Shown here: positions 8,517 through 51,504 of the stretch, piece after piece | Numbering within the stretch: position 1 is the first letter of the stretch | Layout: each line of letters begins with the position of its first letter | IMG/VR virus record: IMGVR_UViG_3300046660_000513 | Coordinates: 1-64,000 of that record | Strand: one strand, 5' to 3' | Length of the DNA: 64,000 nt | Source: a virus | Made by a program: the position numbers and the translations under genes | Notes under the pieces: model-generated | Database searches by the model: none | The model's input: only the letters and a program-made list of their open reading frames with translations | Told to the model about the DNA's origin: nothing

Positions 8517-9287
8517 CTAGTTCACGCGGAAACCACCCTGGTTCATGGCGTACTGAAGAAAGCCCAGCCACTTCAGCCAGTAGTCGCGGCCCTGCTCGCT
8601 GATTCCCGCCTTTTCCAGGGCGGCCTTAACGGTTTCGCCGGTGTGGGTGCGGTAGGTGGTGAGGGCCGCGTCGATTTGAGCGGGCGAGACAACCCACCCG
8701 TCGTTACTGCTGAAGCATTCACTGTAGATGCCGGTGACGGGGGTGGGAGTCCAGGTCAGCTTGCGAATCATCGCGTCCGCATAGTCCGAGATGGTCTTGC
8801 GGACGGGGAGGGTGGTGTCGGTGGCCTGCTGTCCACCGGAGAGGGCGATCAGACGGTTGTCGATCTCCGCGTAAACGGCTTCCCAGTCGTCGTCTCCGAT
8901 GGTGTCGGACTCGGGCCACTCGGGCGGAGTCTGATCGATGCTGCGGGTCTGGAGCATCCCCAGCAGGCCCATGGCGGTGTGGTAGCGGCCCATGCCGCCG
9001 ATGTTGAGCCGGAAGGTGGTCCGGTCTGCGGCAATCAGGGCTTCGTACGCATCATTTACGGCGTCCTGGGCTTCGATGTAGCGCTGGGTACGGCCGGGGT
9101 ACAGCTCGTGAGCCTCCCAGTCGAGTCCCTTTTCTTCCTGGGCGCGCTTGACGTCGAACTGTCCGGACTCTTCCTTGGGCAGGCTGTCCCGGACCTTGAC
9201 GGCGGCGAAGAACGTCTTGCTGGTCTCGTTGTAGGCGGCCGTCTCGACTGCGGTCATCGGCTGGACGGTGCGGAAGTCGTAGCCCAC
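8517..9287 (-). CDS. Hypothetical protein
   Basis: GAGGAG RBS before GTG 9287. Confidence 0.75.
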   Translation of the reverse strand: MGYDFRTVQPMTAVETAAYNETSKTFFAAVKVRDSLPKEESGQFDVKRAQEEKGLDWEAHELYPGRTQRYIEAQDAVNDAYEALIAADRTTFRLNIGGMGRYHTAMGLLGMLQTRSIDQTPPEWPESDTIGDDDWEAVYAEIDNRLIALSGGQQATDTTLPVRKTISDYADAMIRKLTWTPTPVTGIYSECFSSNDGWVVSPAQIDAALTTYRTHTGETVKAALEKAGISEQGRDYWLKWLGFLQYAMNQGGFRVN

Positions 9288-22147: not shown

Positions 22148-22399
22148 GTATCTACCCTAGCATATTGACGGCCAAAAGGAAACGGCCCGCCCCTGTTAGG
22201 ACGAGCCGCCGTAACCGAGGCCGCTACGCGGGAACAGGCTTGCCCTGGGACGGGCCAGGCGTCGGCTCCGGTACCTCAGAACAGCCCGAAGCCCCCACGC
22301 CCTACGGGGGGTTAAGGGCATGGGGGCTTCGGGAAAGGGCTGGTGAGCGGGGAGACCTCCCCAGGTTCCCTCTGCACCAGCCGGGCGCTATCTACCGTA

Positions 22400-22687
22400 C
22401 TACTGTTTGAGCAGCGGGGGTAGTACACCCTCTGCCCGCAGCTTTTTCCGCAGCGTCTTCATACGACCCAGACTCGGGATGAAGATGTGCCAGATCTCGG
22501 AGTTGTTCCCGCTGGTCTCGGTGCACTTCTGGGCGTTGGCCAGGCTGCGCGGTGTACCAGGGTGGGACTCTGCCCGCATCATCTGGGCGTCCCATATGGC
22601 GTTCAGCTTGTCGTATTTCAGCAGGCCATGCACCGCACAGACGCTTGGGTCATCTGTGGTCGTGCCCTTCAAGCGTTGATAGGTCAT
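22400..22687 (-). CDS. Hypothetical protein (leaderless)
   Basis: ATG directly after TAGGGTAGATAC. Confidence 0.7.
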   Translation of the reverse strand: MTYQRLKGTTTDDPSVCAVHGLLKYDKLNAIWDAQMMRAESHPGTPRSLANAQKCTETSGNNSEIWHIFIPSLGRMKTLRKKLRAEGVLPPLLKQ

Positions 22688-22897: not shown

Positions 22898-23242
22898 TCA
22901 GCAGCCCATGCAGCGGTCCCAATCGCCCTTCAGGACGCGCGGACAATGCTCGTTACAGTGCACACGGATGCGCTCCCCGTCCGGCTCCTCGTGCACGGTG
23001 CAGGTACACAGACCCCGGTCGTGGATCCGGATCAACTGTTCCGTGACCTGGTCGGCAACTCTCCTGGCCCTGTCCGCGTCGCCTCCGAACGTCTCCTGGA
23101 TGACCTTGGCGGACCGGTGGCTCATCCAGGTATCGACGGGTACGAGACGGTGAATCAGGGCCGCCAGTTCGCTCTGTGACAGATCGAACCGCATGCGGGG
23201 TTCGGTGACGATACGCGGGAGGTACTCGGGGTCTGATGTCAT
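22898..23242 (-). CDS. Hypothetical protein (leaderless)
   Basis: ATG directly after TAGGGTAGAGAC. Confidence 0.7.
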   Translation of the reverse strand: MTSDPEYLPRIVTEPRMRFDLSQSELAALIHRLVPVDTWMSHRSAKVIQETFGGDADRARRVADQVTEQLIRIHDRGLCTCTVHEEPDGERIRVHCNEHCPRVLKGDWDRCMGC

Positions 23243-23676
23243 GTCTCTACCCTAGCACGTTGAGTAGCCAGCCCCGAGAACATGGCTTGGATCAGGTCAC
23301 CTGTCTCATCGGAGCTGCGGTCCAGCAACACCAGGGGATCCACCGGACCGAATAGATCGTGATAGATCACCTGCAAGCCAAGCATTGTCGCCGGGTTCTG
23401 GGTGCGGTACCCGCTGATTCGAGGATCCGAGTTCCGACCGGCCTTCCCTTCGCGCACGTTGCAGCCCTGACACAACAAGCCTCGAACCAGGGTCGTCCGG
23501 TGACAGTGGTCCATTACCAACCGGTCTCTCCGGTACCCGCAGAGAGCACACCGGTTGTCTTGCCAAACCGTCAGCAGCTCGCGGGCTTCTGGAAAGCCGT
23601 CCTCGGCCAGCGCTGCGACTTGTATCCGGTGATCCTCAGTGACTGCCCAGTCCCAGCAGGCCGGTTTGCCGTCCAT
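23239..23676 (-). CDS. Endonuclease VII domain protein
   Basis: QDNRCALCG...LVMDHCHRTTLVRGLLCQGCN. Confidence 0.9.
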   Translation of the reverse strand: MDGKPACWDWAVTEDHRIQVAALAEDGFPEARELLTVWQDNRCALCGYRRDRLVMDHCHRTTLVRGLLCQGCNVREGKAGRNSDPRISGYRTQNPATMLGLQVIYHDLFGPVDPLVLLDRSSDETGDLIQAMFSGLATQRARVET

Positions 23677-23688
23677 CGGTAGTCCCTT

Positions 23689-24438
23689 CTAAGCGGTGAG
23701 TTTCAGGGCGTCTTGCCCCAGAGCGACCTTGCGAGCGGTAGCGGGCCACCAGCACCGTCCGCCGTGGGCGGTGGGGACCTGGTCGGCATTCAAGCCCGCT
23801 GCGATCGAGGCCCAGGTTTTTTCCCCGCCGACACGTTCTCCGATAATGCGAGCGACGACCTCGTGCGGCAGCACGGAGGGTCTGCCCAGACGAACACCGC
23901 GTGCCTTGAGAGCGGCCAGAGCCTCCCGGGTGCGGGCCTTGATGAGGTTGCGCTCCATCTCGGCGAACACGGCTTGGATCTGAAACAACGCGATGCCTCC
24001 GGGGGTGGTGAGGTCCACTTCGCCATCGGCGGTGGCCATGGACCAACCCTCTTCCTGGCACTGGGCAGCCAGGTTGAGCAGATCCTTGGCGCTGCGGGCA
24101 AGCCGGTCCACGCGCATGAACAGGAGGACCGATGAAGGACCCTGCTGCATACGCTGCAAACAGTTACTAAGCGCCTCTCGGTGCAGGGGAGGGATGGACC
24201 CGGAGACACCGTCGTCCACGAACCAACCGTCGTCGGGGATGTACAGGTTCTGTTTGGCGGCACGTTCTTCAATGCCTGCCTTCTGAGCTTCGAGTCCGGC
24301 ACCGGATTCGACCTGTTCCTCGGTGGACACTCTCAGGTAACCCAAGGCCATAGCTTTGTCTCGATGGATGGCTGTAAGGGCTCGTCGTCTGCGTCGGGGC
24401 TTACCTGGAGGTTTGTTCGATTCGGGGTGGGTGATCAT
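23689..24438 (-). CDS. Serine recombinase (resolvase/invertase family)
   Basis: GYLRVSTEEQ...DDGVSGS...RVDRLARS...AEMERNLIKARTREAL...G.RLGRP; C-terminal DNA-binding domain. Confidence 0.93.
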   Translation of the reverse strand: MITHPESNKPPGKPRRRRRALTAIHRDKAMALGYLRVSTEEQVESGAGLEAQKAGIEERAAKQNLYIPDDGWFVDDGVSGSIPPLHREALSNCLQRMQQGPSSVLLFMRVDRLARSAKDLLNLAAQCQEEGWSMATADGEVDLTTPGGIALFQIQAVFAEMERNLIKARTREALAALKARGVRLGRPSVLPHEVVARIIGERVGGEKTWASIAAGLNADQVPTAHGGRCWWPATARKVALGQDALKLTA

Positions 24439-24669: not shown

Positions 24670-24963
24670 CTACCCGATCACTTCGACCGTGGGGCAACCC
24701 TTGATGATCTCGGTCAACTCGGCCCGGGTGACGGGGGTTCGGGCCCGGCGGCCGGTCAGTCCGGCGTGCAACGCTATGGCCGGGGCTTCCAGGACGGTCG
24801 GCATGCGGTACCTCCGGGCGCGTACTACCAAGAAGTAGTCCCCGAAGCAGAGTTCGTCTCCGATCTGGGGGCAGGGGGCACTGAACAGGTTCCAGTTGAA
24901 GGTGAGGTATTCCACGTCCTGCGGGGTACTTTGCAGCTTGACGACGACTCGTACGACGCTCAT
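24670..24963 (-). CDS. Hypothetical protein
   Basis: GGAG RBS. Confidence 0.6.
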   Translation of the reverse strand: MSVVRVVVKLQSTPQDVEYLTFNWNLFSAPCPQIGDELCFGDYFLVVRARRYRMPTVLEAPAIALHAGLTGRRARTPVTRAELTEIIKGCPTVEVIG

Positions 24964-24987
24964 AGAGAACTCCAGGTCAGAGGGCGG

Positions 24988-25338
24988 TTACTTGAGCCAG
25001 GACAGTCGGAGGATGACGCGGAGGTGCATCCGGCCGTACATCAGCTTGAGCCGGTTCGGTACGTACAGCTGGACCCAGTAGTGCTCCATGAGGACGGCCG
25101 CGCACTTCTCCAGTCCGGCGCGCATCTCGGCGGTTGCGGCCTCTTCGTCTTTTGTGAAGACGTGCCAGATGATCTTGGTTTCGCCTTCGTTGTCTTCGGC
25201 GTGCCAGACTTCGAAGCCTGCGCGCTGTTCTTTCCAGGAGTACTCCGGGATCCCGAAGCGACGCAGGTAGATGCGGTAGTTGTCCTGCATCATCTTCGAG
25301 GTCTTCAGGGTGTGGACCTGGACGGCAATGATCGGCAT
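24988..25338 (-). CDS. Hypothetical protein
   Basis: Motif 25366 + GAGGAG RBS. Confidence 0.7.
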   Translation of the reverse strand: MPIIAVQVHTLKTSKMMQDNYRIYLRRFGIPEYSWKEQRAGFEVWHAEDNEGETKIIWHVFTKDEEAATAEMRAGLEKCAAVLMEHYWVQLYVPNRLKLMYGRMHLRVILRLSWLK

Positions 25339-25404
25339 GGGGGCTCCTCGGGCTATTCGGCGATGTATCTACCCTATCACACACTCCGGGTATACTGGAA
25401 GTCT

Positions 25405-25554
25405 CCTCAGTTCGTACAACGGCCCGCTCCGGCGGGGACTGCTGACACCTCGCCCGGGGGCGCCCAAGTATTACCCGGCATGAGATGAATGAAGGCGGTC
25501 AGGACACCCCCTGAGGTGGGGGAGACGGGGGTTCGACTCCCCCACTGGGGACCG
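25405..25554 (+). ncRNA. tRNA-like RNA with 76-nt D-loop insertion and 6-nt anticodon loop
   Basis: Acceptor CCTCAGT/ACTGGGG, D stem GTAC/GGAC, CCCCC-TGAGGT-GGGGG, T arm GGGGG-TTCGACT-CCCCC, TATACT -10 at 25391. Confidence 0.65.
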
Positions 25555-25715
25555 CGTTTCACTCTTACCGAACCTCGGCTAGCACAGCTCAGTGCGCTTG
25601 TTCGCATTTTCCCCAACCAGCAAGCAAGTGACGGCATATGACGTACCGTCATGCCAGAGGGACGGAACATCCTGTCTTTCGCACACCGTTTTACGACACT
25701 GGAGGAGTACCCCCT

Positions 25716-26225
25716 ATGACCACCTCTCAGACGGGGCTCATGTCGTCTGCTCTCGGTCTGCTCAACAACGACGATGCCGAGCGTGTTGCCGCTTTGGTCG
25801 TACGTGACAACGAGGGCGTCACCGACCAGGCCCAGGCTCTCGCCATCGTCGACGAGGCGCTGAAGTTCCTCAGCGCCGCCACCACGAGCAAGCCCGGCGA
25901 CGGCCGCAGGCTGCGCCCCTCGCGCGTCGTCGATATGGGCTGGCACGCCCTCATCCTGCACACCGAGCTGTACATGACGCTCTGCCACAAGATCGGGCGC
26001 TACATCCACCACCGCCCCGAGGGCCCCGAGACGCTGCGTCGTGAGGCCACCACCCTCGACATCACCCAGGCCGCGATCCGCGAGGCCGGATACGAGCCCG
26101 TCGAATACTTCTGGGGCACCAAGGGCGACACCGAGATCAAGGGTGGCGACTGCCAACACACCGAGTGCCACCAGGACCCCGGCTGCACCGCGCCTCCCGT
26201 GGCCCAGATCGCCGTCGGCGGCTAG
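25716..26225 (+). CDS. Glycine-rich-domain-containing (GRDP/DUF1399-like) protein with Cys-containing tail
   Basis: PSRVVDMGWHALILHTELY...C...GRYIHHRP motif; GGAGGAG RBS. Confidence 0.7.
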   Translation: MTTSQTGLMSSALGLLNNDDAERVAALVVRDNEGVTDQAQALAIVDEALKFLSAATTSKPGDGRRLRPSRVVDMGWHALILHTELYMTLCHKIGRYIHHRPEGPETLRREATTLDITQAAIREAGYEPVEYFWGTKGDTEIKGGDCQHTECHQDPGCTAPPVAQIAVGG

Positions 26226-26278
26226 TCACGCCGCGTGGGAACAACGGTACAGTGAGTCACGGTTCCTAGGAGGGGTAC

Positions 26279-26479
26279 ATGAGTGAGACCAGGTGGGTTG
26301 ATCCCCGGTACGCCGAACTGGTGGACATGTTCGACAAGCTGGTTGCCCGTCGCCGCCGTCAGGGACCGGTGATGCGATGCCGCGCCTGCACTCACGGCCT
26401 CGGGGCCATAGTGATGGTCGACCTCGCAACCAAGAAGCCGATCACCCCGATTCGCTGTGCCCGCTGTTCATCCCTGTAG
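26279..26479 (+). CDS. Small Zn-ribbon protein
   Basis: AGGAGG RBS; two CxxC. Confidence 0.6.
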   Translation: MSETRWVDPRYAELVDMFDKLVARRRRQGPVMRCRACTHGLGAIVMVDLATKKPITPIRCARCSSL

Positions 26480-26501
26480 GTGGCCTTACGCCCTCTACAT
26501 C

Positions 26502-26542
26502 AAAAAGACCCCTCCCGCCGGATGGTCGGGAGGGGTCTTTTT
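26502..26542. terminator. Bidirectional intrinsic terminator
   Basis: AAAAAGACCCCTCCCG...CGGGAGGGGTCTTTTT. Confidence 0.85.
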
Positions 26543-26543
26543 G

Positions 26544-26717
26544 TCACACGCCCGCAGGCGTCGGGGAGAACAGACGGCAGTTCAGGCAGAGCCGTCCTTC
26601 CACCCAACACTCAGGTATACAGGGCCCGTTGTGCTTGCTTGGCGGCTTGGTGGTGTAGGCCTTGGTGTTGGTCGAGCGGCAGTTACGACACTGGTGTGGG
26701 GTGGCGGGAGTACTCAT
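26544..26717 (-). CDS. 57-aa Zn-ribbon protein (not in ORF track)
   Basis: MSTPATPHQCRNC...CLNCRLF. Confidence 0.55.
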   Translation of the reverse strand: MSTPATPHQCRNCRSTNTKAYTTKPPSKHNGPCIPECWVEGRLCLNCRLFSPTPAGV

Positions 26718-37049: not shown

Positions 37050-37112
37050 ATCGCCGCATAGATCCCGGGTGTTGCTCACCCGGGATCTATGCTAGGGTAG
37101 ATACATCAACAA

Positions 37113-37264
37113 GGGCGGAATGGCGAGCGTAGGCCGGTTCGAGTCCGGCCGTCCCGCAGGTCGCGGGTGTGAGGTTCAATTCCTCTTAACCACGGTGGCA
37201 AAAAGTGAGGGGCGCGCCCCCGATGACCGCGCAGAGAGGTTCGAGTCCTCTCCCGCCCGCGCAA
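37113..37264 (+). ncRNA. Structured RNA with three tRNA-type T-loop hairpins in terD leader
   Basis: GGCCGG-TTCGAGT-CCGGCC, GAGG-TTCAATT-CCTC, GAGAGG-TTCGAGT-CCTCTC; closing stem CGCGGGTG/CGCCCGCG. Confidence 0.6.
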
Positions 37265-51428: not shown

Positions 51429-51429
51429 G

Positions 51430-51504
51430 TGCCGCCGGTGGGATTCGAACCCACACTGACCGGGACTTGAATCCGGTGCCTTCTGCCAATTGGGCTACGG
51501 CGGC
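51430..51504 (-). tRNA. tRNA-Leu(CAA), actinobacterial short-variable-arm type
   Basis: GCCGCCG TA GCCCAATTGGCAGAAGGC A CCGGA TTCAAGT CCCGG TCAGT GTGGG TTCGAAT CCCAC CGGCGGC A; no encoded CCA. Confidence 0.9.

Follow-up and report, generated by a model that had tools for sequence, protein, structure and literature searches.

The first 64,000 nucleotides (nt) of the virus record IMGVR_UViG_3300046660_000513, here called the window, include a tRNA-like element of 147 nt on the plus strand (25405–25551; positions without a prefix are those of the window), which lies in a 377 nt non-coding gap between two divergent genes of an uncultured phage. Its helices have been maintained, its anatomy is that of a tRNA with a 78 nt structured insert in the D-loop, and its ancestry lies with tRNA-Glu. 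We tentatively propose, with a confidence that stops short of even, that it specifies a processed RNA which mimics tRNA-Glu and does not decode. A working RNA would be favoured by the intact helices and invariant bases found beside a remodelled anticodon loop and by the orderly insert at a tolerant site; by analogy, the −10 hexamer a few bases ahead and the fact that this phage group has other tRNA-like RNAs would argue in the same sense.

Anatomy of the element

The acceptor stem (CCTCAGT, 25405–11, with ACTGGGG, 25544–50) forms seven of seven pairs, one of them G·U, and is followed by the discriminator A73 at position 25551. The anticodon-like arm consists of CCCCC (25507–11) and GGGGG (25518–22) closing the loop TGAGGT. 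Across the acceptor, anticodon and T stems all 17 pairs are intact, and the invariant tertiary bases (U8, A14, G18G19, A21 and the T-loop UUCGA) are all kept. An earlier reading of the same DNA, made from the sequence alone and referred to below as the original prediction, had described the acceptor stem, the anticodon stem and loop, the variable region AGAC, the T arm and A73 followed by CCG, and each of these is indeed present where it was placed. The D stem drawn at the same time from GTAC (25414–17) and GGAC (25502–05) has both its strands but pairs at only three of four positions, with an A12·G23 mismatch. Once the 78 nt insert is set aside, the sequence forms a four-arm cloverleaf with U8, A14, G18G19, a UUCRA T-loop and a 7 bp acceptor stem. 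The individual features and their surroundings are listed in Table 1.

The minimum free energy fold of 25405–25551 includes the acceptor, anticodon and T helices together with two hairpins between G19 and A21. Because the fold places these hairpins exactly between the two bases, we set the insert at 25423–25500. The D-loop insertion had initially been delimited as 76 nt (25423–25498); its structured nature and its first hairpin (hairpin A) stand, and only its limits have been redrawn. That the two abutting hairpins fill the G19–A21 gap exactly supports the proposal of a tRNA mimic. Hairpin B, the longer of the two, ends in an A/U-rich loop of 15 nt.

The anticodon arm has two possible registers as a consequence of its C5/G5 runs. 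In the stable register, 5 bp close a 6 nt loop. The slipped register has 4 bp, an A·G pair (27–43), a canonical-looking 7 nt loop C-U-GAG-G-U (Y32, U33, R37) and no residue 26, and the RNA may breathe into it. A seven-base anticodon loop on a 5 bp stem was not found, since a 7 nt loop needs the slipped 4 bp stem with its A·G pair. The non-decoding 6 nt loop originally described is thus that of the stable register, but a slipped 7 nt GAG loop is also possible. Decoding on the ribosome would be unlikely, since the body is of Glu type, the slipped register lacks residue 26 and a 78 nt arm projects at the elbow.

Table 1. Features of the tRNA-like element and of its surroundings in the window
Feature	Position	Strand	Remarks
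P0001	24988–25338	−	Left flank of the gap, divergent gene
Standard phage promoter, TAGGGTAGATA on the minus strand	25366–25376	−	Serves the divergent gene P0001 (24988–25338)
−10-like hexamer TATACT (TAnnnT type)	25391–25396	+	8 nt ahead of the acceptor stem; not the standard phage motif
tRNA 5′ part: CCTCAGT, U8 C9, GTAC, A14 A15 C16 G18 G19	25405–25422	+	Sequence, shuffle test
Insert hairpin A, CCCGC-UCCG-GCGGG, 5 bp, UNCG-type tetraloop	25423–25436	+	Directly 3′ of G19
Insert hairpin B, 64 nt imperfect rod closed by GACUGCU/GGCGGUC	25437–25500	+	Abuts hairpin A and A21
A21, D-stem 3′ strand GGAC, A26	25501–25506	+	Matches CAGGAC of Streptomyces tRNA-Glu
Anticodon-like arm CCCCC-UGAGGU-GGGGG, 6 nt loop	25507–25522	+	Alternative: slipped, 4 bp + CUGAGGU (GAG)
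Variable loop AGAC, 4 nt, A46, without residue 47	25523–25526	+	As in tRNA-Glu
T arm GGGGG-UUCGACU-CCCCC, perfect	25527–25543	+	Local match to tmRNA/tRNA-clan T arm
Acceptor 3′ strand ACTGGGG, A73, then CCG	25544–25554	+	CCA not encoded
P0002, glycine-rich-domain protein	25716–26225	+	Precomputed PF27765; starts 162 nt 3′ of the element
Small CxxC...CxxC open reading frame (zinc-ribbon)	26279–26479	+	3′ of P0002; pair kept in related phage G001
Intrinsic terminator, GACCCCTCCCG...CGGGAGGGGTC + T run	26507–26543	+	Ends the rightward unit; by inspection

Relationship to glutamate tRNAs

The body of the element was spliced in silico (25405–25422 joined to 25499–25551) and aligned with two panels of tRNAs: all 60 distinct tRNAs encoded by one complete Streptomyces chromosome (G003), and 34 tRNAs made up of 33 from the Streptomyces phage NootNoot and the tRNA-Leu of the present phage. 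tRNA-Glu(UUC) and tRNA-Glu(CUC) ranked first and second of 60 in the first panel, and tRNA-Glu(ttc) ranked first of 34 in the second. The margins are narrow, the two leading scores being 10 and 8 and that of the next isotype 7, and for this reason we regard the evidence that the element derives from a glutamate-type tRNA as good but not overwhelming. The ranking backs the Glu/Asp-like scaffold of the original prediction as far as Glu is concerned.

The element and tRNA-Glu have in common U8 C9 G10 U11, A14, G18G19, the sequence CAGGAC, a C-rich anticodon stem, a 4 nt variable loop and A73. The identity set of E. coli GluRS is said to include an augmented D-helix, described by Sekine et al. in 1996, that consists of U11-A24, A46 and the absence of residue 47. 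All of these are present in the element. Compared directly with known representatives (Streptomyces tRNA-Glu(UUC) at L095:4089, NootNoot tRNA-Glu(ttc) at L074:7825-7899 and the family RF00005), it is alike in acceptor length, D arm, variable loop, UUCGA T-loop and A73. It differs in the two-hairpin insert, in a 6 nt (or slipped GAG) loop in place of CUYUCAA, and in C1-G72 and A12·G23, and it falls below the thresholds of Rfam and ARAGORN. Neither a Glu anticodon (YUC) nor Glu-type first acceptor pairs were found, the loop being UGAGGU.

A comparison of the 21 stem pairs with those of host tRNA-Glu gave 11 unchanged pairs, two changed on one side, seven that still pair after changes on both sides and one unpaired. 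The anticodon loop, on the other hand, has nothing in common with the Glu loop. Stems kept at 20 of 21 positions around a wholly different loop would fit selection on shape rather than even decay.

Chance, tRNA finders and known RNA families

Run on the native sequence, ARAGORN called only a tRNA-Leu(CAA) at 51429–51504, and neither the element nor a transfer-messenger RNA (tmRNA). Against RF00005 the element gave no match at the gathering score (29 bits) or at E ≤ 10, compared with 56.8 bits for the true tRNA-Leu of the window. These two checks had been suggested at the outset, and neither program calls the native element; together with its anticodon arm and its length, this bears out the initial view that it is neither a normal tRNA nor a tmRNA. 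When the 3′ part alone was given to Infernal, only the T arm was matched (18 nt, tmRNA/tRNA clan). The Rfam matches listed for 25200–25800 at E ≤ 10 were plastid untranslated-region motifs, a microRNA, a Tymo tRNA-like structure and sX4.

Three known classes were considered and rejected. A tmRNA is contradicted by the absence of an ARAGORN or Rfam call, the restriction of the match to 18 nt of T arm, the length of 147 nt and the presence of an anticodon arm. A YrlA or other bacterial Y RNA gave no Rfam match, and no TROVE (Ro60) match was obtained in the 76 kb record, which is 59% complete. A group I or II intron or a self-cleaving ribozyme is contradicted by the absence of any such family at E ≤ 10 in 25200–25800 and by an insert of 78 nt.

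The reality of the 5′ half was assessed with 20,000 dinucleotide-preserving shuffles of the upstream 154 nt. A 7/7 acceptor partner occurred in 19% of the shuffles, and together with at least three of four D-stem pairs at the right spacing in 2.9%; adding U8 reduced this to 0.28%, and adding A14 and GG to 3 of 20,000. The tRNA-like 5′ half is therefore real and beyond chance. With the insert deleted in silico, ARAGORN calls a tRNA with anticodon GAG. It calls one equally well with shuffled 5′ parts, so that this call is no evidence by itself: the 3′ two-thirds alone suffice. Hairpins of the UUCRA T-arm type are found only four times in the 76 kb record: tRNA-Leu and the element have one each, and a second tRNA-like RNA described below has the other two.

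The folding energy of the insert is ordinary in comparison with shuffles (z = −0.85). An insert with no unpaired base outside its two hairpins was obtained in 1.1% of shuffles, a figure which lends modest support since the boundaries were chosen after the fold had been seen.

Genomic context and expression

The record comprises 76,251 bases (59% complete by CheckV; the window is its first 64 kb) of a phage genome of ~130 kb, with a GC content of 63% (Streptomyces-type). Since several of its genes have homologues in Streptomyces genomes and plasmids, Streptomyces is most likely the host. The sequence of the element is not an assembly artefact, because contigs from three other rhizosphere runs span 25007–26300 and agree letter for letter. 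Among the contigs of the four DNA runs none skips the insert and no variant occurs within the element, which says nothing about function. At 24949–24986 the contigs of those three runs differ by seven substitutions and nine inserted bases within 40 nt, which marks a sharp mosaic boundary between strains.

The phage uses a recurrent promoter motif, present in 57 near-copies in the window where ~6 would be expected by chance. Its consensus is TTG..(17)..TGCTAGGGTAGATAcATCA, with TAGGGT as the −10 and 42 exact core copies in the record. The full promoter consists of TTG (−35), a spacer of ~17 nt, TGCTAGGGT (extended −10) and a conserved start region AGATAcATCA. All 42 core copies are oriented with a downstream gene (for example 37092–37110), and the same motif is abundant in the related phages G007–G010 (G001 and G007–G011 being related phage records and G000 the present one). 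The element is preceded by the hexamer TATACT, which the original prediction had correctly located just upstream and back-to-back with the motif at 25366; the latter faces left. The geometry from hexamer to acceptor stem is the same as for the second tRNA-like RNA in G008. A consensus scan for sigma-70 promoters gave no match in 25250–26700.

Downstream, P0002 and the zinc-ribbon gene form a rightward unit, an island within a long block of leftward genes. A Pfam profile search with P0002 gave no match here, its label being precomputed. The terminator of the unit is a strong hairpin with a T run that a simple scan missed. Because no convincing promoter was found between the element and P0002, the simplest model would be that the two are co-transcribed and that the element is released by tRNA-processing enzymes. 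An imperfect palindrome (GACGGCATATGACGTACCGTCATGCC, 25630–25655, plus strand) lies between the element and the start of P0002, and phage G001 has a different palindrome at the equivalent relative position (L002:2908-2938). Both are candidate operators for the P0002 unit. About 1 kb to the left of the element, a serine recombinase gene (Resolvase N-terminal domain, 249 amino acids) adjoins an endonuclease VII gene (23239–24438, minus strand).

Distribution

No match to the element was obtained by blastn at E ≤ 1e-5 among 50,697 phage records, and at E ≤ 10 only T-arm matches appeared (tRNA-Val and other tRNAs). Viral contigs contained neither an exact 25-mer nor the pattern of anticodon arm plus T arm, and metagenome contigs gave no match to this pattern. 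A 24-mer from the 3′ part had no exact match in 185,579 species genomes. In a plasmid collection only the coding part of P0002 matched, and five Streptomyces genomes gave short matches only (E ≥ 0.07), none of which spans the element. Protein-anchored searches with P0001, and with P0002 in metagenome contigs, yielded no usable locus. Within its own genome antisense or direct copies did not exceed expectation; the element is single copy and not a repeated mobile element. As far as seen, it appears to be confined to one phage lineage.

It is absent from the six related phages G001 and G007–G011, both by blastn and by T-loop pattern. G007 (97% complete) and G008–G011 have terminases 86–91% identical to that of the present phage and the promoter motif in common with it, and lack the element together with both flanking genes. 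G001 has the P0002/zinc-ribbon/terminator unit at 71% identity, behind an unalignable 198 nt gap that contains no tRNA-like element. Alignment of the intergenic regions of G000 and G001 gave random-level identity only; a 21 nt match to hairpin A in G001 (E = 0.04) lies at an unrelated location.

The closest homologues of P0002 in a large protein collection show 64–75% identity. The loci examined for an upstream tRNA-like element were 31 with P0002 homologues in Streptomyces genomes, prophages and G001, and none of them has one. The original prediction had allowed that the element could be a leader of this glycine-rich-domain gene; the idea of a conserved leader had to be given up, and co-transcription with P0002 in this one phage is possible. 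In Streptomyces chromosomes, P0002 homologues are frequently found a few kb or less from tRNA genes (L026, L021, L008, L031). In L026 the homologue is located between a tRNA-Lys gene (556–631) and a second copy of its T arm (~3225), an arrangement resembling that at an integrated element's ends.

Other tRNA-like RNAs in this and related phages

A second tRNA-like RNA of ~148 nt is located at 37113–37260 (plus strand), directly 3′ of a copy of the promoter motif and directly ahead of terD. It has three T-loop hairpins and an acceptor-like closing stem and, like the first element, was missed by both Rfam and ARAGORN. A homologue occurs in G008 (L071:1437-1590). Between the two, all 44 predicted pairs are kept, seven of them by changes on both sides, including some in the acceptor-like stem, with no pair broken. 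The G008 copy directly follows the promoter motif, ends at a terminator of its own and thus represents a free-standing small RNA gene. Its conservation implies that this phage group encodes non-canonical tRNA-like RNAs. The second RNA resembles the element in size, in its acceptor-like stem, in a T arm beside the 3′ strand and in a start near a −10. It is unlike the element in its three T-loop hairpins, in lacking an anticodon arm and a Glu-type D arm and in being conserved in G008; no sequence similarity between them is evident on inspection.

Further examples were noted in passing. G001 has a mini tRNA-like element without a D arm between two genes (L004:1455-1526, contig ~66586–66657), with a 7 bp acceptor (GCCCCGG/CCGGGGC), a 7 bp hairpin with a GCGA (GNRA) loop and a 6 bp T arm with the loop UUCGACU. 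It has the 11-mer CGGCCCGCTCC in common with the present element; the flanks are not syntenic and the flanking genes have no homologue in G000, and this 11 nt identity is suggestive only. In NootNoot, an unannotated stretch of ~130 nt between tRNA-Gly and tRNA-Arg (L074:9175-9310; MF347636.1 ~85174–85309) contains T-arm hairpins at L074 9197, 9230 and 9284 closed by GGTGAATA/TATTCACC, a design that matches the three-T-loop RNA of the present phage. Its tRNA region includes more unannotated T-arm elements (L074:8300-8420, 8830-8960, 22260-22390 and 22400-22530), several of which have a normal acceptor stem and D arm with 50–75 nt replacing the anticodon and variable region. The tRNA-Leu(CAA) of the present phage (51429–51504, minus strand) is a 76 nt form with a 5 nt variable loop; that of G008 (L070:1441-1523) is an 83 nt form with the usual long variable arm.

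Possible origins and functions of the element

Several findings weigh against a functional tRNA-Glu mimic. The promoter of the element is a −10-like hexamer only and not the strong motif of the phage. The first acceptor pairs, C1-G72 and C2-G71, are not Glu-like (Streptomyces tRNA-Glu has G1-C72 and C2-G71), the D stem has its A·G mismatch and costs 4.8 kcal/mol to impose, and the folding energies of the whole region and of the insert are no better than those of shuffles. The compensatory changes in the stems may all predate the insertion, having arisen in a then ordinary tRNA. No homologue was found in any collection searched, and the element itself thus offers no covariation or conservation evidence; relatives with terminases 86–91% identical lack it, as does G001 with the same downstream pair. 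Among possible protein partners, GluRS (PF00749) is absent from G000 (59% complete), G001, G007 and G008, and TROVE (Ro60) from the incomplete 76 kb record.

Much of this would also be expected of a dead Glu-type phage tRNA gene, a recent and functionless relic in one lineage that received a 78 bp insertion in its D-loop and changes in its anticodon loop. We consider this rather unlikely, though of the alternatives it is the one to be taken most seriously. It accounts for the single lineage, for the rejection by tRNA finders and Rfam, for the D-stem mismatch, abnormal anticodon loop and missing standard promoter, and for the unremarkable folding energy; the compensatory changes could be older than the insertion, and the CGG at 25420–22 and at 25496–98 (the latter inside the 78 nt insert), which flanks a 76 nt cut, could be a small target duplication. 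Even decay, however, should have hit the stems along with the anticodon loop, and 17 of 17 acceptor, anticodon and T pairs and the invariant bases are intact around a loop which shares almost nothing with that of tRNA-Glu. Nor does the insert look random, its two abutting hairpins filling the space from G19 to A21, and neither it nor the element is a repeated mobile element in its own genome. A useless 150 nt would not be expected to last in a compact phage genome, and the sequence is identical in three further runs. It is improbable, more so than the relic, that the tRNA shape acts solely in cis at the 5′ end of the P0002/zinc-ribbon transcript, recruiting RNase P or RNase Z to set the 5′ end and the stability of the downstream mRNA, with a released RNA that has no role of its own. 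The location fits, with the element on the same strand 162 nt ahead of the P0002 start codon, no convincing promoter between them and one terminator after the unit, and the second tRNA-like RNA also directly precedes a gene, terD. Against this, the 31 P0002 loci, including the two-gene unit of G001, have no such element, the second RNA is free-standing in G008, and a processing signal requires neither a Glu-type core nor a 78 nt D-loop arm.

A working decoder, in which the slipped CUGAGGU loop reads CUC/CUU and the giant D-loop arm is either tolerated or removed from the RNA, is more doubtful still. The slipped loop is canonical (C32, U33, GAG, G37), ARAGORN gives GAG after removal of the insert, A73 fits the identity of bacterial tRNA-Leu, the tRNA-Leu(CAA) of this phage is likewise a short-arm form of 76 nt, and the GC content of the phage is ~9 points below that of its likely hosts. 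The stable register nevertheless has 5 bp and a 6 nt loop, slippage leaves A·G at 27–43 and no residue 26, and the body is Glu-type rather than Leu-type. As for removal, no intron or ribozyme family of Rfam matched at E ≤ 10, 78 nt is far below the size of a group I intron, no bulge-helix-bulge motif was seen by inspection and, to our knowledge, bacteria lack the archaeal splicing endonuclease. If retained, 78 nt projecting from the elbow would be expected to collide with sites on the ribosome. Finally, copies of the 3′ part of tRNA genes are common in phage attP sites, and a serine recombinase gene lies 1 kb away, so that the 3′ part could be an attP core or recombination scar and the 5′ half a coincidence. 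This is largely refuted and hardly credible: the 5′ half is tRNA-like far beyond chance (3/20,000), the 24-mer has no exact match in the 185,579 species genomes and the five Streptomyces genomes no significant match, and the nearby recombinase is a 249 amino acid resolvase type, not an integrase.

Were the element a tRNA-Glu mimic, as we tentatively prefer, it would be a phage gene in which a glutamate-type tRNA has been rebuilt into a tRNA-shaped RNA of ~147 nt unable to decode. Transcription would start from the TATACT hexamer, 1–3 nt before the acceptor stem, and would probably continue into the P0002/zinc-ribbon unit to end at the 26507–43 terminator. RNase P would cut the intact acceptor/T-arm module at 25405, and the 3′ end would be trimmed after A73 and receive CCA, releasing a stable RNA. 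Its two hairpins (78 nt) would protrude from D-loop position 20, a pocket tolerant of extra bases, and the anticodon stem would zip one pair further to leave a 6 nt loop. This arm and this loop would together preclude ribosomal function. The RNA would keep its Glu-type core (U8, U11-A24, A46, no residue 47, A73) and occupy a host or phage protein that handles tRNA-Glu or tRNA-shaped RNAs. The displayed GAG triplet could also pair with the anticodon of host tRNA-Glu(CUC).

Comparison with known systems and significance

In archaeal tRNA genes, non-canonical D-loop introns are flanked by a bulge-helix-bulge motif and excised by EndA. They are like the insert in site, and no such motif was seen on inspection at 25422/25423 or 25500/25501. 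In a searchable literature that is itself incomplete, no paper was found to describe a tRNA-like RNA of bacteria or phages whose D-loop carries a large insert. Closer parallels are found among small RNAs related to tRNAs. Phage T4 RNA C and RNA D belong to a size class of ~120–140 nt. They are small stable RNAs of the T4 tRNA region with unknown roles (PMC3014915). Like the element they are phage-encoded, tied to tRNA-type processing and unexplained in role; they lie within a tRNA cluster, whereas the element is solitary and precedes a protein gene in an actinophage. YrlA-type bacterial Y RNAs, which occur in actinobacteria, including mycobacteria, and in phages, have a tRNA-mimic domain with a T arm, a D arm and an acceptor-like stem, and that of Mycobacterium smegmatis undergoes RNase P cleavage and CCA addition (PMC4201824). 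YrlA is encoded beside Ro60/Rsr and its ends form a Ro-binding stem, while the ends of the element form the acceptor stem itself. By analogy, the domains of bacterial Y RNAs that mimic tRNA would be the nearest to the element in their working; it also resembles the T4 RNAs, and it is a member of neither group.

The usual view of phage tRNA genes is that they aid codon use or stand in for tRNAs that host defences have cleaved (PMC10264068). A body of tRNA-Glu with all its helices and tertiary bases kept and no capacity to decode, if truly so, would suggest that the tRNA shape can also serve as a decoy, as a competitor or as a handle for processing enzymes. As a single and unconserved example the element carries limited weight; its interest is moderate and would increase greatly with evidence of a stable RNA or of conserved homologues. 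If expressed, it would show that the D-loop position-20 pocket can carry a 78 nt domain, which is relevant to RNA engineering on tRNA scaffolds. Phage annotation is blind to this class of RNA, since ARAGORN and Rfam miss the element, the three-T-loop RNA and several elements of a cultured Streptomyces phage. It is conceivable, although we hold it with some doubt, that a functional mimic with an arm at D-loop position 20 is one case of soil phages, Streptomyces phages among them, turning tRNA genes into tRNA-shaped effectors. The targets of such RNAs would be tRNA-handling enzymes or host defences, and not the ribosome.

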